The translations under genes were made by a program, and so were the position numbers. 32,000 nt of DNA from Candidatus Electrothrix yaqonensis (GTDB taxonomy: Bacteria; Desulfobacterota; Desulfobulbia; Desulfobulbales; Desulfobulbaceae), in NCBI GenBank assembly GCA_047651235.1, contig CP178758.1:3120001-3152000 (forward strand). Reading direction: 5' to 3'. Shown here in pieces: positions 2,223 through 29,420 of this stretch. Positions within the stretch are counted from its first letter, which is position 1, and the number at the start of each line of letters is the position of its first letter. The notes under the pieces were generated by a model, which was not told the DNA's origin, did not search any database, and worked only from the letters and a program-made list of their open reading frames with translations.

Positions 2223-3437
2223 TTATTCCTGCTCTTTCAGCTGGCGTAATTGTTCCAGACACTTCTCCGCCCGCAGGGGCATAGAGATCTCGTGATATTT
2301 ATCTGCGGCCTTTTGCCAATACTCCTTCGCCTGTTGTGTTTTCCCTTGGGCCTGATAAAGTTCGGCAAAGCCTTCCAGACATTCGGCCACACCTTCCCAG
2401 CCCTCAATACGTTCAAACTGAGCTGAAGCCTGTTCAACATACTTTTGGGCAGCAGCAAACTCACCGGTCTGCACGGCCAATTTGCCGAGCATTCGTAGGC
2501 TGTCTGCCTTGCCCACCGATTCATTTATGTCACGGTATACTTTCCGGGCATTTTCAAAATCTCTCCGAGCCGCAGGCAGTTCCGAAAGACGAAGATGCAC
2601 GTCGCCGAGCGCTTGAAGGCAGTTGGCCTCGCCGAGACGAGAACCGATCTCACGGTAGACAGGAAGGCATTCTTCATAACGCTTCCGAGCCGCAGGCAGT
2701 TCCGAAAGACGAAGATGCACGTCGCCGAGCGCTTTCAGGCAGTTGGCGGCAAGGTAGGAATCATCCTCCTTAATCACAGACAAGGGTATCTGCTCCAAGG
2801 CATCCTTGGCCTGCCGGTTGCGGGAGTAGCGCATATCCAGATTTGCCTGCCGGAGCAGAAAATACAGCACTGCCTTATCCGGCAGCCGCTTCATTTCCCG
2901 ATGTTCCTGTACTGCCTGGAGCAGGCTTTCTGCCCTGTCATAGGCAAAATAGGGCGGGTTCGTCCAGTCAACACAGATATTATTCAAGGCATCAGCTCCC
3001 TTATCCGGTTCGGCAATCAACTGGTGATAGATGGTTTCGATCTGCCAAGTAAGATCGTCTTGGTCCTGTTCGGCGCAATAGGTAAAGGCGCAGCGGGAGA
3101 GATCGCAGTACTGCTCTTCATCTTCCAACCAAAGCCGCTCCTGCAACAACCTACGGCTACGTTCATGAACATTATACCGCTCTTCAACGGGATACGGTTC
3201 AACATAGGGTTGCTCAAGCAGTTCGGCAAAATGAGTCTCGCCCAAGGGCTGATCAAGCAGGGCATTGAGAAAAGCACGGTCAAAAAAACGGGGCACCGCA
3301 GCAGCCCGGACAGCGGCTTGCAGTTCTTCCGGCAGCTGGGCCATGCTGAATCGCAGAGACAGCCAGTCACGTTCCTCCTGACTCTCGCAGGCCTGGAGCT
3401 GCTCCAGTAATTCCTGATAGGGATTGGTTTCTGACAT
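2223..3437 (-). CDS. Winged-helix-like N-terminus plus TPR repeat protein (sensor/scaffold part of a split STAND NTPase)
   Basis: 404-aa ORF. Repeated about 40-aa TPR-like units occur (ANCLKALGDVHLRLSELPAARKRYEE / ANCLQALGDVHLRLSELPAARRDFEN, and others). The N-terminal 60 aa (LPEELQAAVRAAAVPRFFDRAFLNALL) resemble the region after the NTPase in STAND proteins. It is in frame with the upstream ORF, and no SD precedes its ATG. Confidence 0.8.
   Translation of the reverse strand: MSETNPYQELLEQLQACESQEERDWLSLRFSMAQLPEELQAAVRAAAVPRFFDRAFLNALLDQPLGETHFAELLEQPYVEPYPVEERYNVHERSRRLLQERLWLEDEEQYCDLSRCAFTYCAEQDQDDLTWQIETIYHQLIAEPDKGADALNNICVDWTNPPYFAYDRAESLLQAVQEHREMKRLPDKAVLYFLLRQANLDMRYSRNRQAKDALEQIPLSVIKEDDSYLAANCLKALGDVHLRLSELPAARKRYEECLPVYREIGSRLGEANCLQALGDVHLRLSELPAARRDFENARKVYRDINESVGKADSLRMLGKLAVQTGEFAAAQKYVEQASAQFERIEGWEGVAECLEGFAELYQAQGKTQQAKEYWQKAADKYHEISMPLRAEKCLEQLRQLKEQE
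2564..2747. repeat. 120-bp-period tandem duplication inside the TPR gene
   Basis: 2564-2614 is identical to 2684-2734 (51 nt). After 2 mismatches, a further 11 identical nt follow (2617-2627 = 2737-2747). This corresponds to one 40-aa repeat unit. Confidence 0.9.
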
Positions 3438-3443
3438 GAGGAA

Positions 3444-4217
3444 TCAGGACAGCCGGGGAAAGGTTTTGATAATCTCGATGATCTTAGCCGGATTCCCCTG
3501 CATGGCGTGGCAGATACCGGCCAGAAAGGTCAGGGGAGGATCAACCGGAACCCGTAATCCCAAAGCCTTGACTACGGGCAGCCAGTGTTCGGCATCCGGC
3601 ACCCCGTACAACGGATGTTCACAGCAGCAGTCAGCCCAATCCTCGCAGGTATCAGTGGAAGGGATCTCCTGCCCGGCCACCACTAGGCGCAACTGACGGC
3701 TGGCACGGGGCAGCCGCACAATGATGCTGTTCAACCAAGTGCGGAGGTCATCCGCCGCCTTTTCATAGGTGTCCACAGCCAATAGCATCGGGTTGTCGAG
3801 CTGATCCGTATCCTGCAACCAAGCGTCGGTCAGCATGATGCGCCGTTCCTCGCGCTCCTCCTTGCCGCCGCTATTGAGAACCACATTGATCTGGTTGCTG
3901 TTGCCCTCAATCTGATTATCCCGGATTTCCACGTTATGCTGTTGCAGCCATCGACTGAAGGCAGGCAGTTTGTCCCGACCCGCATGATGAACCGTGCGGC
4001 TGAAAACCTCGGCGGCATTGACCCCGTCCTGCTTGCAATCCACAAAGATCTGATAGGCATCAGTCGGAGCCATGCGGCGGCAATTACGCAACAGGCTGGT
4101 CTTGCCGCTGCCGGATTGACCGCTGAACAGAAGAATCGGCTCCGAGCAGTCCTGCGTCCATAGGCGGGCAAAGGAGGCACGCGGCCCCTGATAATTCGCT
4201 AAAATATCTGCTTTCAT
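3444..4217 (-). CDS. P-loop NTPase, STAND/NB-ARC-like (NTPase module only)
   Basis: 257-aa ORF with Walker A GQSGSGKTS, Walker B-like MLLAVDTYE, RLVVAGQE after it, and a C-terminal GxP-like motif (MQGNPAKI) as in AP-ATPase/NB-ARC helical domains. Its ATG lies 3 nt after the upstream TGA. Confidence 0.7.
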   Translation of the reverse strand: MKADILANYQGPRASFARLWTQDCSEPILLFSGQSGSGKTSLLRNCRRMAPTDAYQIFVDCKQDGVNAAEVFSRTVHHAGRDKLPAFSRWLQQHNVEIRDNQIEGNSNQINVVLNSGGKEEREERRIMLTDAWLQDTDQLDNPMLLAVDTYEKAADDLRTWLNSIIVRLPRASRQLRLVVAGQEIPSTDTCEDWADCCCEHPLYGVPDAEHWLPVVKALGLRVPVDPPLTFLAGICHAMQGNPAKIIEIIKTFPRLS

Positions 4218-6192: not shown

Positions 6193-6292
6193 TAACTGAT
6201 GTTACGCAGCCGAAATGCAAAATTGGCAGATTCCACGTTTTGGGTGTCTCAGTAACTTACTGATCTTTTATTTGCGTGCGTAACATCAGTTA
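6193..6292. repeat. 100-bp MITE-like element / long hairpin with perfect 16-bp terminal inverted repeats
   Basis: taactgatgttacgca (6193-6208) is the exact reverse complement of tgcgtaacatcagtta (6277-6292). The right arm overlaps the gatB stop codon. The core 14-mer recurs at 22764-22777. The interior contains gtgtctc and agtaac/ttactg motifs shared with the 7881-7993 array. Confidence 0.7.
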
Positions 6293-7720
6293 TGAATTTT
6301 GCCCCAGCTCCTCCGCAAACAGCTTATTCGCCAGCTGCGGGTTAGCTTTGCCCTTGGTTTTCTTCATCAGCTGACCGACAAAGAAACCTATGACCTTGGT
6401 CTTACCGTCGCGGAACTGCTGGGCCTGATCCGGGTTGGCGGCAATGATCTCCCGGACAATGGCGGCCAGTTCGCCCTCGTCGCTCATCTGGATCAGTCCC
6501 TTTGCTTTGACGATCTTTTCCGGGTCATCGCCGGACTCCAGCATGTGGGCAAACACGGCCTTGGCGATCTTGCCGGAGATGATGCCCTTTTCCACCATCA
6601 GCAGGAGAGCGGCCAGTTGCGGCGCGGTAATCCGGCATTCGCTGATCTGCTCCGGTGCATATTCCCGCAGCAGCTCGGTGGTCATGAAGTTGGCCACCTT
6701 TTTCGGGTTGTTGTATTCCGCGCAGACTTGCTCGAAATAATCAGCTAAGTCACGGGAGGCGGTCAAAGTCGCGGCCACGTCTTCCGGCAGGCTGAGTTCA
6801 GCCATGAAGCGCTGTCGTCGCTCATCGGCCAGCTCCGGCAGTTCAGCCCGCATCCGCTCGATCCACTCCTCATCAATATGCACCGGCACTAAATCCGGAT
6901 CCGGGAAGTATCGGTAATCGTGCGCTTCTTCCTTGCCGCGCATGGATTCGGTTTTATTGCTGTCCGGATTCCAGAGCAGAGTGGCCTGGGTCACGGAGCC
7001 GTTATCCAGAAGGATATCCCGCTGCCTGCGCTCCTCGTACTCAAGAGCGAGCTGGACATTGCGGAAGGAGTTCATATTTTTCAGCTCCGTCCGGGTGCCG
7101 AACTCCGCCTGCCCCTTGGGCCGCAGGGAGATGTTGGCGTCGCAGCGGAAACTGCCTTCCTGCATGTTGCCGTCGCAGATATCCAGGTACCGGACAATGC
7201 TGTGCAGTTTTTTCAGATAGGCCACTGCCTCTTCCGGCGAGCGCAAATCCGGCTCGCTGACGATTTCCAGGAGTGGAGTACCGGTCCGGTTCAAATCCAC
7301 ATAGCTGTTCGGCTCCAGCTCATCATGGACCAGCTTGCCCGCATCTTCCTCCATGTGAGCACGGGTGATGCCGATGGTCTTTTTCTCCCCGTTGACCTCG
7401 ATCTCCAAGCGACCGTGCTCGGCAATGGGCAGCTCGAATTGGGAAATCTGGTAGCCCTTGGGCAGGTCAGGATAGAAGTAGTTCTTGCGGGCAAAACGAT
7501 TCTCCCGATTGATGGCGGAATCCGTGGCCAGGGCCAGCTTGATGCCGTTTTCCACCACCTGCTTGTTCAGCACGGGCAGCGAACCCGGCATACCCAGGCA
7601 GACCGGACAGGTATGAGTGTTGGGCGGCGCGCCGAACTCGGTGGAACAGCCGCAGAATATCTTGCTCTTTGTCTTCATCTGGGCATGAACTTCCAGCCCG
7701 ATCACGGTTTCAAATTCCAT
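6290..7720 (-). CDS. gatB: Asp/Glu-tRNA(Asn/Gln) amidotransferase subunit B
   Basis: 476 aa, starting [25 protein letters not shown]. Full-length GatB-like sequence with the C-terminal YqeY-like tail. Confidence 0.95.
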
Positions 7721-7880: not shown

Positions 7881-7993
7881 GAGACACGAGGTTTACTCGG
7901 GTTGAGTAACGAGTGTTACTCCATCTGAGACACGCCCGTTACTCGAAGTGAGACACACTCATTACTCGGAGGGAGACACGAGCGTGTCTCTGC
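7881..7993. repeat. Tandem array of five 23-nt units, each an imperfect or perfect 7-bp palindrome
   Basis: Units start at 7881, 7904, 7927, 7950 and 7973: gagacac-gagg-tttactc-gggtt / gagtaac-gagt-gttactc-catct / gagacac-gccc-gttactc-gaagt / gagacac-actc-attactc-ggagg / gagacac-gagc-gtgtctc. Units 2 and 5 are perfect hairpins. Confidence 0.9.
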
Positions 7994-8040: not shown

Positions 8041-9396
8041 CTACTCCTTGTTGCCGCGCCGCTGGACGTTTGCTGCGCAGCCTTCTTCGATGTACCATGC
8101 CCCTTTGGTATTGCCCTGAAGATCATTGTCTTCGATAATGCCACCACCGCCATCGCATATACGAACACCCGACCAGCCATTTTTAGAAATGCGGTTAAAG
8201 CGTAGAATCGGATTTTTGGTTGTGTTAATTATAATGCCGCCCTGCGCGTTGGAGAATATCTCATTATGCTCTATCAACCCTTTACCGTTATTACAAATAA
8301 GGACACCAGCTGCTGGTCCATCATGAATGTGGCAGCGACGCAGAATCGGGTCTGCGTCGTTAAGGATTTGAACACATATATTACCTTTGCTTGAAATGTC
8401 GCAATCCTCTATTTCAAGCCTACCTTGCTCAATCCTTATATCATTTAAGGTAAGGTTAGCAACCCTTCCAATGTCAGTTTTTGACAAAATAGCTGGGTTA
8501 CCAACAAGCTGGATAATAATCTCGCTTCGCTCTCCATCACCTATGATCTCAACAGGCTTGTCTATCACAATGCTTTCTTTATACAAGCCGGGTCGCACAA
8601 GAATGCGTGTGCCCGGTTCAGCAGCCTTGAGTGCAGCAGTTATTGTCGCATAGTCACAACGATATAAAGGATCAATAACCAAGGTCGGTGGATCTGTCTT
8701 TACCGTTGGCGCAAGCTGTGGCCTGCTCTCCGACGGTGGCGGAGCGTAATAGTTGTTGATCTGCGTACCGATAGCATTATTGCCCTGCGCAATGCTCTGA
8801 TCTCCTCTACCAGTTTTAGTAAATGTGTTGCTGCTGGCAGGCGTGGAGTCGTCCTTCTCTGGCTGTAAGCAGGATGCTTCCGCCTCACTTCGCTCCAAGG
8901 CCGCAACAATCTGTTCCGCCATTTTAGCAAGAGCCTTGCGCACCGACGATGAAGTGAATTCTTCAAAACGCAACTCCCGCCAGTCCGCATACTGTCGCGC
9001 TGCGAGAACCTGCGCCAGTTTGTCATGTTCCCGCTTTGCTTTATCTTCCAGCACAGGACAGCGTACATAATAGACCGGCAGAATCAGGTCACCCCGTCCC
9101 AGCTCTTCTTCCCGCTTCAGGAAATACTTCAGCTCTTTCCGGCAGGCATTGCTTTTAAAAAAGGCTGGCGTGATGATCGGAATGAGAAAGGTGGTCGCAG
9201 CTAAAGACTCGTGTATGCGCTTCTCCCACGGCTGACCCCAGGCAATGTCCTCTCGGTCTTGAAAGATATCAAACGGCTTGCCGGTCTGCATCCGCACTTC
9301 ACCGCTCAGGCATTCACGGAACCGGGTCAGCCGACCCTGCTCATGCTGGTCGTCCAGATTCACATAACTCATGAAGGCAAGTGCTGTCCGGCTCAC
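8041..9396 (-). CDS. TIR domain protein fused to right-handed parallel beta-helix (PbH1-like) repeats
   Basis: The N-terminal TIR pattern is ALAFMSYVNLDD...DIFQDREDIAWGQPW...FLIPIITPAFFKSNACRKELKYF, which includes the conserved Glu of the WCxxEL-type motif. A linker follows, then repeats such as IEHNEIFSNAQGGIIIN, ILRFNRISKNGWSGVRI and IIEDNDLQGNTKGAWYI. The preferred start is GTG at 9396 (GGAGGGaattgagGTG gives MSRTALAFMSY). The tracked ORF start at 9456 is a TTG. Confidence 0.8.
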   Translation of the reverse strand: MSRTALAFMSYVNLDDQHEQGRLTRFRECLSGEVRMQTGKPFDIFQDREDIAWGQPWEKRIHESLAATTFLIPIITPAFFKSNACRKELKYFLKREEELGRGDLILPVYYVRCPVLEDKAKREHDKLAQVLAARQYADWRELRFEEFTSSSVRKALAKMAEQIVAALERSEAEASCLQPEKDDSTPASSNTFTKTGRGDQSIAQGNNAIGTQINNYYAPPPSESRPQLAPTVKTDPPTLVIDPLYRCDYATITAALKAAEPGTRILVRPGLYKESIVIDKPVEIIGDGERSEIIIQLVGNPAILSKTDIGRVANLTLNDIRIEQGRLEIEDCDISSKGNICVQILNDADPILRRCHIHDGPAAGVLICNNGKGLIEHNEIFSNAQGGIIINTTKNPILRFNRISKNGWSGVRICDGGGGIIEDNDLQGNTKGAWYIEEGCAANVQRRGNKE

Positions 9397-9471
9397 CTCA
9401 ATTCCCTCCGCAGCGGCAAGAGCTGCCTGTTCATCTTCTTGAAGCAGGGGAAACAACTCCCCGGCGCAGCC

Positions 9472-10026
9472 CTACATCCCTGCCAGTTCCGCACCGCTGT
9501 GTACCCACCGGCGCATGTTCACCAGTTCATCCGACCACGCACCCGAAGTCCTGACTTTGATAAACAGACGGAACAGCTCATTGACCAGCTTAATCCCCTC
9601 TTCAAACAGAGATATCCGCTCCAGCACCTGTCCTTCCAGGCTGTCCGGATCATCACTGTCGCCGTCAGCCGCCCCGGCGGTTTTCGGTAAACGGACGCTG
9701 CGGAATTCCATAGTGGCGGCAGTCAGGGTGATATTGAATTCATAATCACCGCTGCCGATTTTGATTCTGGCCTGTTCCGGTTTTTTGCCCAGAGCCAGCC
9801 CGGCGCGGGCCTCTTTCAGTTCGGTCTGCAGGCCCCGGCAGATGAGTTTTTCGCTTTCCGGGCCTTCACCGTATTCCAGCAGCATATGCTTTTCAAACAC
9901 CACCAGAATATCCCCCTGACCGGGCAGCTCAATACTGCCGCCCCGTTCCTCGCTCTTAAACCAGAGCCATGCCAGAAACTCCTGGCCGAGGAAACGCTTC
10001 TCTTCAATAAGCTCAACTAAGTCCAT
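9472..10026 (-). CDS. Hypothetical protein resembling the C-terminal part of RdgC (tentative)
   Basis: 184-aa ORF. LGQEFLAWLWFKSE and the C-terminal helical LFEEGIKLVNELFRLF loosely match the RdgC C-terminal half. This is recognition by eye only. Confidence 0.45.
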   Translation of the reverse strand: MDLVELIEEKRFLGQEFLAWLWFKSEERGGSIELPGQGDILVVFEKHMLLEYGEGPESEKLICRGLQTELKEARAGLALGKKPEQARIKIGSGDYEFNITLTAATMEFRSVRLPKTAGAADGDSDDPDSLEGQVLERISLFEEGIKLVNELFRLFIKVRTSGAWSDELVNMRRWVHSGAELAGM

Positions 10027-10076
10027 AAAAGCATACCCGCCGTTCTCTTTTCCTGTCGGTTAAATACTAAAATCAA

Positions 10077-10682
10077 TCAGAGCAATACTGCCGGTTGAAG
10101 ATCATCCAGTTTTGCCGCTGTTTCCGGGTCTGCCAGCCGGAGCGCAGAGTTCCAGGGAATCTGCATGACCAGAGAAAGATCAAAGGTCTCCCGGAACAGA
10201 TCTTCCAGCAGAGCAATTGCCTTGCGGCTGCCGGAAAAAAACAGCAGGGTGTTGTCGGCGGCATTCCAGCAGAGGTCGTAGACCGACGGCATGGGTGGCG
10301 ACTTGCGTACCAGCTCGGCCCGTATCCGCTCTTTGATCTCCAGGCGGACAGAGCGGCTCAGACGGCGCAGCTCTTTTTCCTGCCTGATCCGAGACTCTTC
10401 CTTGGCAGTGAACTTCCTCAGCACGGCCGCAGACACCTTGCGTTCATCAATCCGCATGGACAGCACCACGTAATCCCCGGCAGCATAGGAGCTGTAGGCA
10501 AAGTCAGCATCAAACATATCCGCCACAGACACCCAGCCGATGGAATACTCATCAATGGTATCGTCAATATCCTGAAACGAGTGCTCCGCCACCCGTTCCG
10601 CAATAAAATCCCAAAAATTCTCCGGCACTTCACCTTCTACTATAAAGCGGGTAAAGGAAGCGCTTCCTGATAATAGTCCCAT
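10077..10682 (-). CDS. RdgC-like recombination-associated protein, N-terminal two-thirds (tentative)
   Basis: The start was moved to the ATG at 10682 (SD AGGAGA upstream; MGLLSGSASFTRF). IGWVS..., RKVSAAVLRK... and LLFFSGSRKAIALLEDLFRETF parallel RdgC blocks. Confidence 0.55.
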   Translation of the reverse strand: MGLLSGSASFTRFIVEGEVPENFWDFIAERVAEHSFQDIDDTIDEYSIGWVSVADMFDADFAYSSYAAGDYVVLSMRIDERKVSAAVLRKFTAKEESRIRQEKELRRLSRSVRLEIKERIRAELVRKSPPMPSVYDLCWNAADNTLLFFSGSRKAIALLEDLFRETFDLSLVMQIPWNSALRLADPETAAKLDDLQPAVLL

Positions 10683-10844
10683 ATCTCTCCTGTCAAAAAT
10701 ACCTGCAAAGCGTTCTCTGCTCTTCTCTGCGCGGCCACCAGACCACAGCGAAATCTTTATAACAAAGATTGCTGCAGGCAACAAGCACTCTCTTCATGGA
10801 CGGACAGAGGAACAGAAAAAACAGACAGGCGCTTTTTTTTTCTG

Positions 10845-11552: not shown

Positions 11553-12419
11553 TCAATGATGATCGCCAGCACCCTCGTAGTCTCCCTTGCTCATACCACG
11601 GGGCAGGGCCGGTGGCGGTTCCGGTTGAATCGGATTAAAGCGATGCTCCTGAACAGTGTGGGGATTGTGGCATTCTGTACAAGCCCACCACCGCTTTTTC
11701 CCTCCGACTTTCCATTCGCCGGTACGCTTGCCGTGGAGACCCATCCGCCATTCGCTGTAAGTAGCGCCGTGACAGCTTCCGCAGACCTTATAGGATTCAT
11801 TAAAGCTGACCTCGTTTCCTCGACGGTCAACCAAGGTGTCACGATTGGCGGCATTATGGCAGTCAAAACACCAGATTGCTCCCCGGCCATGCTGCAGATT
11901 CGTGGCATCGCTGATGATATCCTGATGATTCCCGATCTGGCGGGGATCATTCTTCGGGGCATCCATATTTTCACCGACATAATGACAGCCGCTGCACTGC
12001 ATGTTTGTTTGCTTTATTGTTTTTAAGTGCTCCGCACGGGGCCTGATGACCGCCTGGGCAAAATCGCCACCCGTTTGATCGCCGAAGCTCGGCATGTCAC
12101 CCATAGGTTCAGTACCATAGTAGGGATCGCCGTACCAGAGAACTGCTCCGGTGGTGGGTGAACACTTCACATTGGGATAACCGTACTTGGGGACAGCATT
12201 ATCCACCTTTGAGAGTTCGGTGGCGCCTTTGATACTTTCATAGCATGCAGCTGGTGCAGCATCGGACGCAGCTTGGACTGCACCGGACTCGTCTTGTGCC
12301 GCATCTTCTGCCAGAGCCTCGCCAGGCATATTCTGGAAGAGCAGGCCGCCGGTTACCAAGGCTACGGCAAAAAGGCCGTAGAAAGCTGCTGCTCTCACAT
12401 ATTTTCTCCCTGAAATCAT
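11553..12419 (-). CDS. Membrane-anchored periplasmic tetraheme cytochrome c
   Basis: Four CxxCH motifs (CSGCH, CFDCH, CGSCH, CTECH). N-terminal hydrophobic anchor AAAFYGLFAVALVTGGLLF. ATGA overlap with the NrfD-like gene. Confidence 0.85.
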   Translation of the reverse strand: MISGRKYVRAAAFYGLFAVALVTGGLLFQNMPGEALAEDAAQDESGAVQAASDAAPAACYESIKGATELSKVDNAVPKYGYPNVKCSPTTGAVLWYGDPYYGTEPMGDMPSFGDQTGGDFAQAVIRPRAEHLKTIKQTNMQCSGCHYVGENMDAPKNDPRQIGNHQDIISDATNLQHGRGAIWCFDCHNAANRDTLVDRRGNEVSFNESYKVCGSCHGATYSEWRMGLHGKRTGEWKVGGKKRWWACTECHNPHTVQEHRFNPIQPEPPPALPRGMSKGDYEGAGDHH

Positions 12420-23197: not shown

Positions 23198-23279
23198 TTG
23201 ACTTCATGCGGGTTTCCTGCTCCCCTGCACCGGTCTCTGCCCGGAAAAGGATACCCTGCGCATCGGTAACTGTTTGGTT

Positions 23280-25622
23280 ATGAAAAAATCAATAGGCATT
23301 GATCTCGGCACCACTAACTCTGTTGCTGCGATAAAGAAGGTCAGTACAGAAGTCCTGAAAAATGCAGAGGGCGAATATATTACGCCGTCCTGCGTGACTG
23401 TGAAAAAACGCCTGATGCGCAAACCGGAATTCATTGTCGGGCGCAATGCACTGGAATGGATACACCAGGAACCGGGAGATACCATAACTGCGGTCAAGCG
23501 TCTTATCGGGCGGAATTTTCATGACAAAGAGGTGCAGGAGCTGATCACTGAGCATGGCGTACATTACCGGCTTGCATCCCATTCACAGGGTTCGGCGAAC
23601 AGCCTCGCCATTCTGGCCGGAGGAAAAGAGTTCACCCCGGAAGAGATTTCGGCAAAAATTCTGACCAAGATAAAGGCGGATGCGGAAGCTGCTCTCGGCG
23701 ACCGGGTGGATACCGCCGTGATCACTGTTCCTGCCTATTTCAATGATAAACAGAAGCATGCCACCAGAACAGCCGCTGCCTTGGCTGGCCTGAAAGTACG
23801 CCGTCTGCTGCCTGAACCCACGGCTGCAGCTATTTCCTTCGGAGTGGACAGAATCTCTGGTCATGACGGTCGGACCGTGCTGGTTTTTGACTTCGGCGGC
23901 GGAACCCTTGACCTGTCCATTCTGACCATCAGCGGCGGACGGATCATTGAGATGGGCAAAGGCGGCGATATGTGGCTGGGCGGAGAGGACATTGATGCCC
24001 TTATTATTGATTATGTGCTGGAGAAAACCGCAGAGAAGGAACGGATTGCTGATATCGGCGCCTTTCTTGACCGGCAGAAAAAAGCACAGAAAATCAGGTT
24101 TCTCTCTGCGCTGAAAACTGCGGCGGAAAAGACTAAAATTATTCTGAGCAACAGCAGGGAAACCTGTATCGAGGTCCTCGGTCTTCTGCTGGATGATGAT
24201 GGCGATGCCCTAGACATTGAGGTTGACCTGACCCGCGCCCGGTTTGACGCGATGATGCAGCCCATGCTGCATTCCATGCTGGAGCTTGTCCGGGGCCTGC
24301 TTGCTGATGTCCACTTTACCGAAGACCTGATCGACAATATTCTGCTTGTGGGCGGCAGTGCGCGCATTCCCTGTGTTATCAAAGCACTGCAGGGGGAATT
24401 CGGCACAGATCGGGTTCTGCTGCATGAACGGCCCATGCTTGCTGTGGCCGAAGGGGCCGCCATCCTCAGTCATCGCCTTGCCGATACCCTGGAATGTCCG
24501 CAATGCGGTCAGAATGCGGCGCAGCAGGATGCGGTCTGTCCCCATTGCGGCTTTGATCTTGACAGCTATACTGTTGAGCAGGGCGTTGTTGAAATTGTCC
24601 ACACGGCTGCGCATGATTATTTTATCCGGCTGGAAAATAACCGGCGTTTTCTGATGATCGAGAAAAATACGCCCTTGCCCTGCTCCTGCACCGAGGTCTT
24701 TCAGCTTGTTGATGCGGCGCAGCAGCTGGTACATATGAAGTTCTCCAATATGGTCAACGGGCAGGAGCAGAGTATCGGCGATCTCTGGCTCGGCATTGAT
24801 CGGAACGACCGGGAGAAAAGCCCCGGCAGGGAAACAGCGGCGGAAAAGGCGCAGGTCTCCCCGGAACCTGCACGTCTTGCTGTTACCTTGGATATTGATG
24901 AGAATAACCTGGTTTCCGTCAATGCGGCCTTGGTTGATCAGTCTGAGATTGCGGTTTCAAGGACGTTGTCCCGGGGAAAAGCGGACGAAAAACTCTTTCT
25001 TGCCCTTGAACAGGCAATCAGCGATGCTGACAGACGGCAGTACTCGGCCTATACGGTGATTGACCTGCTGAACCGGACCCGCTCCATTATTACAGCAATC
25101 AACCGTGTTGTGCATCCGGTGACCGGCGTGGTGCATGAAGCACGGTATGAAGAGGCGCAGGGCATGATCCGCAAGGCGGTGCAGATTGCGGAGAATGAAG
25201 AGGCGCCGCTGACCCAGATATACTATGCGGAAAGTATGCTGGAGGATTACGGCATGCTGATCGCCCCGGAAATACAGGAAACTCTGCAGGAAAGAATCGC
25301 CGCCCTGCGCCAGGCGGACAGCCACGGTTCCTACGGGGAAACAATGCAGGCCTCCGAGGCTCTTGCCGAGGCCCTGGATGACGACGGACTGGCTTTGGTC
25401 AATACCTTGGTGCAGATCGAGAATGCCGGAGAAATCTGTTATGCCGATGATCCCGGCAAGGCAAAACGGTTTCTCCGGGTTGTTTCAGACGTTCTGAAAG
25501 CGGCCGAAAAAGGTGATCCCTCTGTGGAGGACAAGGTGAATGCAATCATGCCGGAGGTGGATGAAGTGCTGGACAGATACGCCAGAAGTACGCAGAAGAT
25601 CCACAGAGATATCCGCAGATAA
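23280..25622 (+). CDS. Atypical Hsp70 family ATPase with a zinc ribbon inserted between NBD and SBD and a divergent helical C-terminus
   Basis: NBD motifs IGIDLGTTNS, DFGGGTLD and LVGGSARIP. Zinc ribbon CPQCGQNAAQQDAVCPHCG. SBD-beta-like NTPLPCSCTEVF...LAVTLDIDENNLVSVNA. The ATG at 23280 is preferred over the tracked TTG at 23274. Confidence 0.85.
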   Translation: MKKSIGIDLGTTNSVAAIKKVSTEVLKNAEGEYITPSCVTVKKRLMRKPEFIVGRNALEWIHQEPGDTITAVKRLIGRNFHDKEVQELITEHGVHYRLASHSQGSANSLAILAGGKEFTPEEISAKILTKIKADAEAALGDRVDTAVITVPAYFNDKQKHATRTAAALAGLKVRRLLPEPTAAAISFGVDRISGHDGRTVLVFDFGGGTLDLSILTISGGRIIEMGKGGDMWLGGEDIDALIIDYVLEKTAEKERIADIGAFLDRQKKAQKIRFLSALKTAAEKTKIILSNSRETCIEVLGLLLDDDGDALDIEVDLTRARFDAMMQPMLHSMLELVRGLLADVHFTEDLIDNILLVGGSARIPCVIKALQGEFGTDRVLLHERPMLAVAEGAAILSHRLADTLECPQCGQNAAQQDAVCPHCGFDLDSYTVEQGVVEIVHTAAHDYFIRLENNRRFLMIEKNTPLPCSCTEVFQLVDAAQQLVHMKFSNMVNGQEQSIGDLWLGIDRNDREKSPGRETAAEKAQVSPEPARLAVTLDIDENNLVSVNAALVDQSEIAVSRTLSRGKADEKLFLALEQAISDADRRQYSAYTVIDLLNRTRSIITAINRVVHPVTGVVHEARYEEAQGMIRKAVQIAENEEAPLTQIYYAESMLEDYGMLIAPEIQETLQERIAALRQADSHGSYGETMQASEALAEALDDDGLALVNTLVQIENAGEICYADDPGKAKRFLRVVSDVLKAAEKGDPSVEDKVNAIMPEVDEVLDRYARSTQKIHRDIRR

Positions 25623-26776
25623 TGCGCACAGGGAACGCCTGCCCGGTCTGCAGTCTGCAGGGACTGCCGCCCGACATTGAAAAATGCCCCCAGTGTGATG
25701 CGGATCTGACCTGTTTTCAGGCTCTGGATACCCTAGCTGAACACAACAGTGCCGACAGAGCTGACAACGCCGAGGCTGCGGAACAGAAATCTTCATCAGA
25801 CAACCGCGCTGCCGTTTTTCTGCTTCTGTTGCTGCTGGTCCTGCTTTCTCTCCTGTTCCTCTTTTTTTTCTTCAGGACAAGCAATCGTGTTCTGATGCTG
25901 GATCAGCAGGTAACTGCATTGAAGGCTGAAATGCAGACGGCAAAGCAGGCGGACAGGAAGCAGAACCCGGAACAGAACAAAGCTGCGGCAATATGTGCGC
26001 TCCCGGTGCAGCAGCCCAAGGCAAAGGAAAAAGAAGAGTGGGAGAAAGATCCCGACGCTGAGCACAAAGAACAAAATCAGGAAACAAAGGAGGAAGCGCA
26101 GGCCGATGGAGTTGCTGCGGTAACCTCCTCCGGGGACAGGCTGCGGAAAGGCCGAGCTGGAAACGTGCAGCAAAGAGAACAAAGCAGTAGAATAAACGTG
26201 ATAACCATTGTAAACGTTGCCGAACCTGCAGCAAAAGTTACAATCGCAAAGAGTACGGTAGAAGAACCGGCAACCCTGCAGGCACAGAAGGTTGTAAAAA
26301 CAGCAGAACCGGACTTATCGGATCTGCCGGAATCCAAAGCAGGCAGCGGGGCAAGCGGAAAGCCGACAGCAGCGCTGCCTGTCCTGCAGCCGCCCCCGGC
26401 CCGGCGATGGCCGGACAGTACCTTTTTATATCAGACCGGGCAGGGTGATACGGTATGGGGGATTGCCGAGCATTTTTACGGGGACGGCAGATACTATCCC
26501 GTGATTATGGAGCAGAATCCGGACCTTGTGATCAGCAGAGTCAGCAAGGAACAGATTCTCCGGCTGTTGAGCGACCGGAGCGCGCTGCGGAACTTTTATG
26601 CCCGCCGGATAGAACGGCGGGACGGTCTGCTGGTCTGGAAGCATGAGATACTTGCTGGTGAGACCCGGCAATCCATTCAGGCCCGTTTTGCACCGCCCGG
26701 TTCTTCCGGCAGAGTTTTCTATGCGCAAAATCCAGCGATTGTTCCCGGCAGAATAGTGAGGATTATTCTCCAGTAG
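25622..26776 (+). CDS. Zinc-ribbon / single-TM / coiled-coil / low-complexity / tandem LysM-like envelope protein
   Basis: The start overlaps the Hsp70 stop (TAATG). Contains CPVCS...CPQCD, TM helix AVFLLLLLLVLLSLLFLFFFF, and a K/E/Q-rich spacer. LysM-like segments are GDTVWGIAEHFYGDGRYYPVIMEQNPDL and AGETRQSIQARF...YAQNPAIVPGRIVRI. Confidence 0.7.
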   Translation: MRTGNACPVCSLQGLPPDIEKCPQCDADLTCFQALDTLAEHNSADRADNAEAAEQKSSSDNRAAVFLLLLLLVLLSLLFLFFFFRTSNRVLMLDQQVTALKAEMQTAKQADRKQNPEQNKAAAICALPVQQPKAKEKEEWEKDPDAEHKEQNQETKEEAQADGVAAVTSSGDRLRKGRAGNVQQREQSSRINVITIVNVAEPAAKVTIAKSTVEEPATLQAQKVVKTAEPDLSDLPESKAGSGASGKPTAALPVLQPPPARRWPDSTFLYQTGQGDTVWGIAEHFYGDGRYYPVIMEQNPDLVISRVSKEQILRLLSDRSALRNFYARRIERRDGLLVWKHEILAGETRQSIQARFAPPGSSGRVFYAQNPAIVPGRIVRIILQ

Positions 26777-26875
26777 CAGGAGGTACCTGACAGGTACTGC
26801 CGTACTCTGCCTGTTTTTTCGTATTTTCAGCCAACTTCCGGGAGACAAGAGGGAGACAGAGAAGAGCAGGAGCCT

Positions 26876-27742
26876 ATGCAGGAAACCAGTCAGCAAGAGA
26901 TAAATAAAAAGATAACCGAATACTACAGGGCGCTTACCCCGGCCTATGAAAAGTACTCTGTGCAGTCGAACAATATTCACTACGGCTACTGGGAGAAAAC
27001 CGCCCGGACAAAATCGCACAGGGAAGCTCTGGAGCACATGAACGCCTTTGTGGCAAAAGCTGCTCAGGTACAGGCCGGAGACAGGGTGCTTGACGCAGGC
27101 TGCGGCATGGGCGGCAGTTCAGTCTGGCTGGCAAAGATATTCGGCTGCCGAGTGACCGGCATAACGCTCTGCAGTGAACATATTCCCCTTGCGGAACGCT
27201 TTGCCCGTGAACATAAGGTGGAGCATCTGGTGCAGTTTTTCTGTAGAGACTTTGCCGACACCGGTTTTGAGTCAGCATCGTTTGATCTGGTCTGGGTCCT
27301 GGAAAGCTGCTGTTACGCTGCCGATAAACGGGATTTCATCGCAGAGTCGGCCCGATTGCTGCAATCCGGAGGGCGTCTGATTGTTGCGGACGGCTTTCTG
27401 CAGAAAACAGCGCTTTCTGCAGAAGAACAGAAAATGTTAGATTGCTGGATGCACGGCTGGGCAGTACCGAATGTCATAAGTCCGGACCAGTTCGGCCGAC
27501 ACCTTGAAGACTGCGGATTTGAACATATAACTTTTTCTGATATAACAAAAAATATCATGATGACTTCGCTGTGGATGCACCGGTTTGCCAAGCTGATCTA
27601 TCCGGCAGCGCGCATTATGGTCAAGCTCGGTTTCTGGCCTGAGCAGAAAAAAGGACACTGGCAGGCGGCGTTGAAACAATTCCATCTCTTTGCGGATCAT
27701 ATCGGTTGCTATGGCCTTTTTCAGGCGCGCAAAATCGGCTGA
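26876..27742 (+). CDS. Class I SAM-dependent methyltransferase
   Basis: Motif I VLDAGCGMGGSS, then IHYGYWE and LLQSGGRLIVAD. Substrate unknown. Confidence 0.85.
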   Translation: MQETSQQEINKKITEYYRALTPAYEKYSVQSNNIHYGYWEKTARTKSHREALEHMNAFVAKAAQVQAGDRVLDAGCGMGGSSVWLAKIFGCRVTGITLCSEHIPLAERFAREHKVEHLVQFFCRDFADTGFESASFDLVWVLESCCYAADKRDFIAESARLLQSGGRLIVADGFLQKTALSAEEQKMLDCWMHGWAVPNVISPDQFGRHLEDCGFEHITFSDITKNIMMTSLWMHRFAKLIYPAARIMVKLGFWPEQKKGHWQAALKQFHLFADHIGCYGLFQARKIG

Positions 27743-29420
27743 GAGCTGTCCTCCGCAGCATAAGGAGCACGGGTCACGTTCTCCGGCAGAGCTGTATGAT
27801 GCGGGCTTTGCCCTGGCGCAGGCAGGCAGGTTGGCGGAGTGTCTGCATTGCTGGCACCGGATACCGTCGTATGCGCCTGAGTTTGTTGCCCAGAAAAACA
27901 CGCTGGCTGCTCTGCTGATCCGGAAATGGGCGGACCGGCTCGTTCAGGAGGGAGATCCACTGGAACAGGTTGAGGAAATCCGACAGCAGCTTGATGCCCT
28001 GACAGACTTTGCGCTTGATCCTGTGCAGATAACGGGCCGGGATGAACTGGTCAGCTGCTGCCAGTCTCTGCATCTGGTCCGGCTCTGGCAGGAGGGACGG
28101 AACCGGGAAATTCTGCAGACAGCAGCCGGACAGGAACTGCTACATCCCACAGTGCTGGAAATCCGGGCCAAGGCAGCCTATCAGGTCCTAGCAGCCTACG
28201 GGGCACAGACATTACCGGCTGAGGTACGGCAGTTCATTGACTGCTGGCTCTCAGCCCTGTTCCATCCCGCAGTTCTTCGGACCTTACCGGGCGGCAAGGG
28301 TGAGATGGGGGAGAAGGAAGAGCAGCGGCAGAAACTGCTTGCTCTCGGCAGGAACATGGTCTGCCGATATGCCGGGCAGCAGCAGGCAGACAGCGGTAAG
28401 CAGTTTACCCGGCAGTGGGAAGAGGAGCTTGCCCTGCTTGAAATATTGCAGAGTGCAGCCTTGCCTCCGGAAGCTGAGCAGACGCTCCCTGTACCTTCTG
28501 TATATACCCCGGCCTTGGCCTGGCAGACAGGAACAGCCGATAAGCTCTGTGCCATAGTACGAAGCTGTCAGGAAAAATTCGCAGACAATGAACAGTATCT
28601 GGCAGTAGGGGCAGCCTATTCATTAGCCGGTCCTGCGCTCCTCATGGTGCGAAGCGGCCAATATGACGAAGCGGCTGCTGAACTTATTCAGCTGGATAAC
28701 CTGCCGGAAAAAGAAAGCCCGGATTCGTTTATTTTTATTGCTTACGGACTGGTCAGAGCGGCTCTGGACAGCGGGTGCCATTATCTGGATGTCGGCAGGC
28801 ATCAGGAGGCGGAAAAAATATTACTTTTTGTTCTTCCGCTGGTCCCCGATTTTCCCTCTCTTCAAGAGCAGCTGCTCGCAATGCTTGCCGAAGAAGATGC
28901 ATACGATGATGCCGACAGGGTGGCAGTGGCCGTCAATTGTCTGACAGAACTGCACAGGACAGCCGTCTCGGATGAAATCAGCAGAGCACTCAGTTCCGTC
29001 CTGACCAGACAGGTGATTCTGCAGCACAGTGCAGGCGCGACACCCGGCGATGTGCTGCTCCAAACCATAAAAAAGGCTGTTGAGCTGAACCCTGAGGATG
29101 CCTTTGCCCGCATGACCCTTGACGATATCAGGGCGGACCTGGAAATAGCTGAAATGCGGCAGGCCGTGATTGACGGCAAACTGGCGCGGGCCGCCGGGAT
29201 CGCAGAAAAAAGCAGGTATCCGCAGGTAAACGAACAGTTTTTTCACTTTGCCGCTCAGGTGGTTGAGCAGATTGCAGCAGGAGATTACCCTGATCCGGAG
29301 ACAGCCGTGCTGCTGCTCCGGCAGCTTCTGGAACATGTTCTGCAGCTCAACCCTGCGCATGCGGTAGTGCAGGAGGTCGAGTGTCTCCTGTATGACCTGG
29401 AAGATCAACTGGAGTTCTGA
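27690..29420 (+). CDS. Large all-helical TPR-like repeat protein (start uncertain: ATG at 27690 or 27711, both overlapping the methyltransferase gene)
   Basis: 576-aa ORF with TPR-like segments (AELYDAGFALAQAGRLAECL, SGQYDEAAAEL, VGRHQEAEKIL, AVELNPEDAFA). No catalytic motif recognised. Confidence 0.65.
   Translation: MRIISVAMAFFRRAKSAESCPPQHKEHGSRSPAELYDAGFALAQAGRLAECLHCWHRIPSYAPEFVAQKNTLAALLIRKWADRLVQEGDPLEQVEEIRQQLDALTDFALDPVQITGRDELVSCCQSLHLVRLWQEGRNREILQTAAGQELLHPTVLEIRAKAAYQVLAAYGAQTLPAEVRQFIDCWLSALFHPAVLRTLPGGKGEMGEKEEQRQKLLALGRNMVCRYAGQQQADSGKQFTRQWEEELALLEILQSAALPPEAEQTLPVPSVYTPALAWQTGTADKLCAIVRSCQEKFADNEQYLAVGAAYSLAGPALLMVRSGQYDEAAAELIQLDNLPEKESPDSFIFIAYGLVRAALDSGCHYLDVGRHQEAEKILLFVLPLVPDFPSLQEQLLAMLAEEDAYDDADRVAVAVNCLTELHRTAVSDEISRALSSVLTRQVILQHSAGATPGDVLLQTIKKAVELNPEDAFARMTLDDIRADLEIAEMRQAVIDGKLARAAGIAEKSRYPQVNEQFFHFAAQVVEQIAAGDYPDPETAVLLLRQLLEHVLQLNPAHAVVQEVECLLYDLEDQLEF

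Follow-up and report, generated by a model that had tools for sequence, protein, structure and literature searches.

What could a TIR domain fused to a parallel beta-helix be doing between two conserved genes in the chromosome of a cable bacterium? The question is raised by a gene of Candidatus Electrothrix yaqonensis, which occupies positions 8041-9396, on the minus strand, of a 32,000-nt stretch of contig CP178758.1 (positions 3,120,001 to 3,152,000; hereafter, the window), and which encodes a protein of 451 amino acids (aa) with a TIR domain, the putative effector head, at its N-terminus and a right-handed parallel beta-helix of the FBXO11/CASH type at its C-terminus. Based on sequence comparisons and structure prediction, we propose, at a probability of roughly one half, that this protein acts as a single-chain, ligand-triggered effector-sensor of invaders, which would consume nicotinamide adenine dinucleotide (NAD+) and thereby arrest or kill the infected cell of the filament. 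The protein is probably cytoplasmic.

Gene architecture and the TIR head

The open reading frame (ORF) begins at a GTG codon (9396), with a GGAGG sequence 8 nt before it, and ends at a TAG stop (8043-8041). This start agrees with the N-termini of the homologues (MSRTALAFMSY), and a database protein of 451 aa (P0001) is 100% identical to the window protein; a longer reading of 471 aa, from a TTG codon at 9456, is unlikely given the homologue N-termini and the spacing of the ribosome-binding site. Pfam searches returned TIR_2 (2.6e-11; 44.5 bits, cut-off 28), TIR (1e-7; 32.3 bits, cut-off 21.3), Beta_helix (3e-17; 63 bits, cut-off 25.9) and NosD (6e-6), all of them exceeding the curated cut-offs, and TIGR03804 was matched with 26.7 bits (cut-off 19.45). 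An AlphaFold2 model, built with an alignment of 45 sequences, reached a mean predicted local distance difference test (pLDDT) score of 83 and a predicted template modelling (pTM) score of 0.52. Its TIR region (aa 1-176) displays alternating strands and helices and is confident, with pLDDT of about 75-94 over most of its length; aa 177-232 are unstructured (pLDDT <50), and aa 233-451 form stacked short strands with pLDDT >90. From the unstructured linker and the pTM of 0.52, the two domains are predicted to have no fixed mutual orientation. In Foldseek searches against the PDB, the N-terminal half retrieved plant, animal and bacterial TIRs (RPP1, L6, SNC1, TLRs, AbTir) with a probability of 1.00, and the C-terminal half retrieved pectin methylesterases, AlgG/AlgE epimerases and PL6 alginate lyases. 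The protein is accordingly divided, all on the minus strand, into the TIR domain (8872-9396, aa 1-175), a disordered linker (8701-8871, aa 176-232) and the beta-helix (8044-8700, aa 233-451). The agreement among the ORF, Pfam, AlphaFold2 and Foldseek upholds the first-pass annotation of this DNA, which had described an N-terminal TIR joined to a C-terminal beta-helix at 8041-9396, and the motifs that it quoted (AFMSY, DIFQDREDI and IPIITPAFFKSNACRKEL) are all found in the protein.

The linker had been called Pro/Ser-rich, a description that proved too narrow: both residues are present, but the composition is N/Q/G/S/T/P-rich. Within the linker, an N/Q/G-rich segment (SNTFxxxGxGxQSIAQGxNAIGTQINNYYAP; 8772-8829, aa 189-217) is present in all cable-bacterial copies, as well as in a TIR protein of Electronema PJ (locus L032) that has a different C-terminus, and thus travels with the TIR domain. 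The segment is absent from the Streptomyces and Acidobacteria members, and occurs in no other ORF of the window or of the fetched loci. Amyloid-signalling motifs of the G-phi-Q-phi-G type adjoin TIR2 domains in filamentous bacteria (bioRxiv 10.1101/2020.01.06.895854), and the linker segment may be regarded as loosely similar to them, a likeness that we offer as a lead only.

An alignment of 45 family members, drawn from Desulfobulbales, Streptomyces and Acidobacteria, shows 14 positions of the TIR without any variation, with S10, Y11, D47, W57, T76, P77, C85 and E88 among them. The latter, the putative catalytic glutamate, is encoded by a GAG codon (9133-9135, minus strand) within the motif S-N-A-C-R-K-E-L. 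A phmmer search against PDB sequences aligned 'FFKSNACRKEL' with 'FVKKNWTEYEL' of AbTir (7uxr) and 'YADSKWCLMEL' of flax L6, so that E88 stands in the column of the Glu of 'WTEYEL' and 'WCLMEL', which we take to be the catalytic residue of both proteins; the retention of this Glu had also been pointed out in the first-pass annotation, and holds. Of the solved TIRs, AbTir, L6 and RPP1 come nearest in sequence and fold, with single-sequence E-values of only 2e-3 to 1e-2, and they have in common with the window TIR a C/W-x-x-E helix motif and the aligned Glu. However, AbTir and L6 carry a Trp four residues before this Glu (WxxxE), a position held by Ala in the window family (A-C-R-K-E), and the domain context of AbTir and of the plant TIRs is unlike that of the window protein. 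The Pfam matches, the fold, and E88 together with the other 13 invariant residues give the domain the look of an intact enzyme, and its fold and the invariant Glu at the presumed catalytic position indicate that it is probably NAD+-cleaving.

Searches against models of known systems placed the protein outside of them. In PADLOC v2 no model spans the whole protein; the only match was PDC-S66 (3e-8), confined to the TIR core (aa 62-130 as numbered in the 471-aa reading), and the beta-helix had no match. Among NCBIfam models, FxsC (NF040588, TIR-like, of the FXSXX-COOH system) scored 56 bits against a cut-off of 130, and TIGR04247 (NosD) 38 bits against a cut-off of 300, with nos genes absent from the window neighbourhood.

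It is improbable, in our estimation, that the TIR domain is a signal-producing enzyme comparable to Thoeris ThsB, the cyclic-ADPR-type (cyclic adenosine diphosphate ribose-type) product of which would activate an effector encoded elsewhere. Many bacterial TIRs do produce signalling nucleotides (bioRxiv 10.64898/2025.12.03.692087), and there is a weak similarity to the NCBIfam model of ThcB4 from Thoeris type III (NF058526; 5.7e-5, 22 bits against a cut-off of 220). ThsB and the window protein both have a bacterial TIR that conserves the Glu used for catalysis by related TIRs, and for both a part in the sensing of infection is implied. Conversely, the window protein lies far below the cut-offs of the Thoeris models of NCBIfam, the PADLOC scan gave no ThsB match, and a large C-terminal beta-helix is, to our knowledge, not a feature of ThsB. 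Moreover, Thoeris includes ThsA or another effector partner, whereas the neighbours of the window gene are an rdgC-like gene, p184, gatB and lysS; no ThsA, SIR2 or other TIR partner is adjacent, as the first-pass annotation had remarked for this locus, and neither the window nor nine homologue places from five lineages (eight look-ups, one shown twice) have such a partner, or a SLOG, Macro or other effector, next to the gene. The flanks at those nine places are unrelated housekeeping or toxin-antitoxin genes and, since no neighbour is conserved among them, the functional unit appears to be one gene.

Relatives and diversification of the beta-helix

The beta-helix comprises an N-terminal cap (ILVRPGLYKE...EIIGDG) and a short run of PbH1 coils, the repeats of which correspond to a 46-residue double unit (NPTLRRNRIHDGKxxGVxVxxNGQGTLEDNDIFxNAxAGVxI). 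The number of repeats varies across the family, with proteins of 451 to about 720 aa, and the window copy has the minimal number. Using the beta-helix alone as query in a HMMER search of 1.84 billion representatives, 7,608 proteins were found at E <= 1e-3, and 791 at E <= 1e-30. The TIR of the window subfamily is present on 36 of the best 148 matches; among the other 112 are Pkinase (27), other TIR_2 (14), caspase (7) and Hsp70 (at least 4) heads, the Hsp70-headed relatives including P0154, P0204 and P0229, as well as CHAT, SEFIR, ThsB_TIR, EAD1/EAD7, WD40, SIR2_2 (P0127), PNP_UDP_1 (P0142) and ParA-like (P0179). For the SIR2 head of P0127, the matches include ThsA (1e-33) and Dsr1/Dsr2; the PNP and caspase heads of the sister proteins match PADLOC effector models. 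The family comprises more than 1,456 near-full-length relatives, with 7,608 clusters at 50% identity for the beta-helix subfamily, and its database labels are generic, namely 'right-handed parallel beta-helix repeat-containing protein' or, for many bacterial members, 'F-box protein 11'.

Four eukaryotic F-box proteins stand among the same best 148 matches, three of them also with zf-UBR, which is the FBXO11 architecture; F-box plus zf-UBR proteins therefore rank in the top 150 of 1.84 billion representatives. Aligned by BLASTP with one FBXO11-like protein, the window beta-helix showed 32-41% identity over 101-148 residues, in many registers, a similarity that we read as homology between the two sets of CASH repeats. 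In FBXO11, these repeats are flanked by an F-box and a UBR zinc finger, neither of which was detected by Pfam in the window protein, and the output is ubiquitylation, whereas the window protein carries a TIR head with NAD+ cleavage as its proposed output.

From the variety of heads found on one beta-helix subfamily, we consider that the beta-helix is a shared recognition or scaffold module beneath interchangeable effector heads. The occurrence of direct-acting heads (SIR2, PNP, caspase) on the same beta-helix also counts against a signal-producing TIR, and argues that the head is the executioner. The first-pass annotation had suggested that the beta-helix would be the sensing half of a one-gene system, and this suggestion gains support from the interchangeable heads (SIR2_2, PNP_UDP_1, caspase, kinases and other TIRs), along with the recombination and diversification of this half in cable bacteria.

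The association of the fold with carbohydrate or surface binding, also made in the first-pass annotation, fared worse. A carbohydrate-binding or -modifying module (epimerase, lyase or esterase-like) that acts on an envelope or cytoplasmic glycan, with the TIR as scaffold or regulator, is in our view very unlikely. AlgG/AlgE mannuronan C5-epimerases, pectin methylesterases and PL6 alginate lyases are indeed the closest solved structures by sequence and fold, AlgG/AlgE and the pectin methylesterases share the right-handed parallel beta-helix fold and the PbH1 repeat signature with the window protein, and weak Pfam matches to Pectinesterase and DUF1565 fall in the cap region. However, identity to these carbohydrate enzymes is only 10-16%, the NosD model is missed by the wide margin given above, and at the sequence level the beta-helix stands closest to FBXO11-type CASH repeats and to bacterial effector fusions, rather than to carbohydrate-active enzymes. 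In addition, AlgG/AlgE and pectin methylesterases are exported, whereas the window protein opens directly at the beta-A strand of its TIR, with no N-terminal extension for an export signal. The CASH repeats of FBXO11, which is the best understood of the relatives, recognise protein substrates (PMC8825234), and this, together with the N-terminus, leads us to doubt the carbohydrate or surface-binder label.

Regarding composition, 300-bp windows over 8100-8700 have 41.7-44.3% guanine plus cytosine (GC), values that lie no higher than the 5.4th percentile of the window, and gatB has 57.3%. The AT-rich character formerly assigned to the gene as a whole is confined to the beta-helix half (GC 0.455; GC at third codon positions, GC3, 0.425), whereas the TIR half (GC 0.545, GC3 0.60) is close to the p184 and rdgC-like neighbours (GC 0.55-0.56, GC3 0.63-0.64); gatB and lysS have GC of 0.57 and GC3 of 0.70-0.75. 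A similar GC3 split between TIR and beta-helix recurs in Electronema JM (0.70/0.42), Electronema JC (0.70/0.43) and E. aestuarii (0.58/0.44), and no such split was observed in the Streptomyces, Acidobacteria-like or other copies compared. Recent horizontal transfer was discarded as the cause of the low GC, given that it affects only the beta-helix half and recurs in these three genomes.

The two halves have discordant phylogenies. Compared with P0003, the window protein is 84% identical in the TIR and 59% in the beta-helix; the respective values are 84% and 88% with Electrothrix sp. AR5 (P0002), 68% and 91% between P0003 and P0013, and 96% and 59% between P0043 and P0061. For the TIR, column entropy amounts to 0.56 bits in 12 cable-bacterial copies and to 1.12 bits in all 45 sequences; the corresponding values of the beta-helix are 0.96 and 1.17 bits. 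Variable positions of the beta-helix concentrate in the coil turns and exposed sites, with the Asn/Ile/Gly core fixed. These data suggest that discrete beta-helix types have been recombined onto TIR heads, as would be expected of a specificity module.

The same divergence could be taken as a sign of decay, the window copy being a non-functional remnant with minimal repeats and an AT-rich, divergent beta-helix in a locus that is eroding in relatives. We give this explanation hardly any weight. Compared with other cable-bacterial copies, its beta-helix reaches an identity of only 56-61%; the first coil bears a deletion ('LTLND-IRIE'), the repeats deviate from the consensus at several points, and gene scars are found in relatives, as described below. 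Nevertheless, the reading frame is intact, all invariant core residues of the TIR and the beta-helix are retained, the high pLDDT extends along the whole beta-helix, and this beta-helix variant is 88% conserved in AR5, so that it would rather represent an allele type under constraint.

Insertion site, cassette turnover and the 3' repeat array

The gene is flanked upstream by p184 (9472-10026, minus strand), which encodes a conserved protein of 184 aa without Pfam match, and downstream by gatB (6290-7720, minus strand; Pfam GatB_N, 1.6e-126). A scan of Desulfobulbales for p184 yielded 492 tblastn-confirmed stretches, from which 80 loci were kept, 74 of them also containing gatB. In 70 of these 74 loci the two flanking genes are adjacent, with a gap of 23-241 nt (median 36), and a larger gap was found in only 4, three of them named Electrothrix or Electronema, plus one labelled Desulfobulbaceae (L027). 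The insertion between conserved genes noticed in the first-pass annotation is thus supported by synteny. Since p184 abuts gatB without any TIR gene in those 70 loci, p184 was rejected as a functional partner.

TIR-beta-helix genes lie in the p184-gatB gap in the window, L003, L026, L027, L093 and the complete genome of Ca. Electrothrix aestuarii, in which XisH, XisI and Uma2 follow; in Electronema JM, a copy is placed directly upstream of gatB, with other upstream neighbours. Other cable bacteria carry different cargo. In E. marina (L001) and E. gigas (L004) the gap holds a 300-aa Abi_alpha protein (Pfam, 1.8e-44; PADLOC candidate PDC-S47, 9e-42), and this cable-bacterial version of the gap has XisH/XisI/Uma2 or TumE close by. 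In Electronema PJ (L032), the TIR and linker are kept with an unrelated C-terminal region, followed by the scar 'GVGIFEDNDLRGNKE' with its stop and then by a MNT/HepT pair. Only orphan 3' remnants of TIR-beta-helix and Uma2 genes remain in L002, and a second orphan tail follows the repeat array in L093.

The Abi_alpha proteins of L001 and L004 share their last 19 residues, in-frame, with the TIR-beta-helix protein, and the nucleotide identity of both tails begins exactly at the 'AW' codons. This conserved tail (AWxIxxxCEANVQRRGNKE) corresponds in the window to the last 19 codons (AWYIEEGCAANVQRRGNKE) plus the stop (8041-8100, minus strand), with homologous tails, supported at the nucleotide level, in L001 (2105-2164), L004 (11400-11458), L002 (about 3215-3330), L032 (about 12150-12190) and, after the array, L093; the tail is thus retained where the remainder of the gene has been exchanged or lost, which suggests that it serves as a preferred recombination junction for cassette exchange. 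A second TIR-beta-helix paralogue adjoins serA in two Electronema genomes, JM (L088, 7001-8431) and PJ (L089, 6098-7567), flanked in the latter by Uma2 and a MazE/PIN pair; the family therefore has at least two fixed sites in cable bacteria.

As the same site upstream of gatB is occupied in both Electrothrix and Electronema, the insertion is old and predates the split of the two genera. The horizontal acquisition put forward in the first-pass annotation is hence sustained as to the insertion between conserved genes, but not as to a recent event. We regard the gene as an old cable-bacterial resident that was later lost, replaced or recombined, and as an accessory gene in a hotspot whose alternative cargo in cable bacteria is of toxin-antitoxin or abortive-infection-like type.

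Between the stop codon and the gatB leader, an array of five imperfect palindromes of 18 bp with a period of 23 nt extends over 7881-7990 (no strand assigned). Its pattern (GAGWMAC-N4-GTKWCTC) has 5 matches against 0.01 expected by chance, half-sites are mixed between units so that individual hairpins are not always preserved, and the RNA fold is better than that of shuffled sequences (z = -5.6). Rfam returned no match in this 3' repeat region, and promoter and terminator scans were at chance level. The position of the array is kept, with 5-9 units, in L004 (11520-11660), L026, L027 and L032, and also in L093 and L108; the array is absent from the Electronema JM and E. aestuarii loci (L087 and L081). 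Arrays of the same type, with 2-6 units, were also observed in metagenome contigs (L091, L092, L094, L097, L099 and L103) whose fetched stretch contains no TIR-beta-helix gene, and several of the dispersed arrays close with a hairpin followed by TTTTT, resembling a terminator; the array type was found in none of the viral contigs. Consequently, the five-unit hairpin array reported 3' of the gene is real but not specific to it, and probably belongs to a dispersed intergenic repeat family of Desulfobulbaceae or of cable bacteria.

Other features of the window are recorded here in their own right. The rdgC-like gene (weak Pfam RdgC, profile positions 22-162 of 298) and p184 form a pair at 9472-10784 that is kept upstream of gatB in many Desulfobulbales loci, and p184, which has a 'FLAWLWFKSEE' motif, might represent the C-terminal half that the rdgC-like gene lacks, if RdgC has been split. 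Just past lysS, at 2223-4217 on the minus strand, an AAA_16/AAA_22 ATPase (257 aa) adjoins an ORF with TPR_12/TPR_10 (404 aa), and both could derive from a split STAND/NLR-like gene, a candidate for another conflict-type locus in the window. Finally, the segment at 23274-29420, on the plus strand, encodes a 782-aa Hsp70-like protein with a zinc ribbon and a C-terminal region of about 350 aa without Pfam match, followed by a 384-aa and a 576-aa ORF without Pfam match, and a methyltransferase; Hsp70 is also a head fused to FBXO11-type beta-helices elsewhere (see P0154, P0204 and P0229 above).

Proposed function and its meaning

The mechanism that we propose would proceed as follows. The beta-helix would be the recognition module and, by analogy with FBXO11, most likely bind a protein, e.g., a component of a phage or other invader. 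Ligand binding would lift an autoinhibition or cluster several molecules; the TIR domains, each tethered to its FBXO11-type CASH beta-helix by the flexible linker of about 55 residues, could then assemble the composite active sites that TIR enzymes need and cleave NAD+. As NAD+ is consumed, the infected cell of the filament would stop growing or die, i.e., abortive infection. The comparisons described above show the domain identities, the conserved Glu, the lack of a partner gene, the insertion with its cassette turnover, the swapping of heads on one beta-helix subfamily and the mosaic diversification of the beta-helix half, whereas the cleavage of NAD+, the kind of trigger, the assembly of the TIRs and the outcome in defence are inferred.

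The logic of a NAD-targeting head fused to a sensor is known from DSR1/DSR2, TIR-NLR/Avs and TIR-SAVED/STING proteins. The window protein resembles DSR1/DSR2, the TIR-Avs/NLR-like proteins and TIR-SAVED/TIR-STING in its arrangement, with an N-terminal NAD-targeting domain and a C-terminal recognition module, and also in lacking an obligatory partner gene and in its predicted activation by assembly; furthermore, its sister P0127 has the ThsA/Dsr-like SIR2 head on the same beta-helix. It differs in that its putative sensor is a right-handed beta-helix, and not the C-terminal sensor region of DSR2 or an NTPase with TPR/WD40 repeats, and in having no STAND NTPase, SAVED or STING nucleotide-binding domain and no whole-protein PADLOC model.

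Several observations, to which the lack of a whole-protein PADLOC model may be added, weigh against the proposed reading. The same chromosomal site is held across two genera, and the conservation of the beta-helix across phyla is about equal to that of the TIR, neither of which is usual in an immune sensor that evolves rapidly; an endogenous ligand that is itself conserved could account for both. As for the charged residues that are strongly conserved in the repeats (RRNRIHDGK / LEDNDIF), their role may be in the structure instead of in ligand binding. The hotspot company seen in cable bacteria (Abi_alpha/PDC-S47, MNT/HepT, TumE, XisH/XisI/Uma2, MazE/PIN) gives way to ordinary contexts in other phyla, where the neighbours are mostly metabolic genes. 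Mobility is likewise not obvious, as a search of 50,697 phage records returned no homologue and one of 72,556 plasmids no full-length homologue, the plasmids giving partial matches only, namely a TIR-only match on an Agrobacterium plasmid and distant Streptomyces beta-helices; carriage on a known mobile element was dropped on these grounds. The Agrobacterium match is an unannotated TIR of A. tumefaciens (NZ_CP116698.1, 33290-33844), 43% identical to aa 6-190 and without beta-helix match.

These points bear on the main alternative, in which the protein would be a regulator of programmed cell death, stress or kin conflict in filamentous (multicellular) bacteria, the beta-helix sensing an endogenous protein or damage and the TIR lowering NAD+ so as to sacrifice or quiesce the cell. 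We consider it rather unlikely, although it accounts for the position upstream of gatB kept in Electrothrix and Electronema, for the serA-adjacent paralogue of two Electronema genomes and for the good conservation of the beta-helix across phyla. The named family members come from cable bacteria, Streptomyces and Acidobacteria, and the caspase, CHAT and EAD domains found in sister proteins are typical of conflict systems of multicellular prokaryotes (PMC7159879), which also fits such a role. Conversely, the gene is dispensable, since E. marina, E. gigas and L002 have lost it or carry a replacement; where it is replaced, the substitute is of the abortive-infection type (Abi_alpha, PDC-S47), and the mosaic, diversified beta-helix of cable bacteria is more readily explained by an external target that changes than by an endogenous one that does not. 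A sensor of invaders continues to be the reading that we favour.

We found no published description of the TIR plus beta-helix architecture in the searchable literature, including two conflict-system papers of the Aravind laboratory and a 2025 TIR survey; as far as that literature goes, this type of sensor, the extent of its family and the link to FBXO11 seem to be undescribed. A broader conjecture, which we advance tentatively and hold to be less probable than its opposite, is that the FBXO11-type beta-helix is an unrecognised and widespread prokaryotic target-recognition module under TIR, SIR2, PNP, caspase, kinase and Hsp70 heads, from which FBXO11 descends; cable bacteria would exchange it as a cassette at fixed sites via the 19-codon tail, giving discrete specificity alleles, and the N/Q/G-rich linker segment might be an amyloid-like element for TIR clustering.

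If the proposed reading is right, the right-handed beta-helix would be a new type of sensor among bacterial single-protein immune effectors, in a large family that is absent from current defence catalogues. Human FBXO11 is a lymphoma and neurodevelopmental-disorder gene. A sequence search of the PDB gave no solved structure of its CASH domain, so that the bacterial homologues could be tractable models of protein binding by FBXO11, and the link between both would add a further case of a eukaryotic module that also occurs in prokaryotic conflict systems. The cable-bacterial locus itself, with head and tail swaps that have left visible scars, would constitute a natural experiment on the exchange of immune-specificity modules in an uncultured multicellular bacterium.

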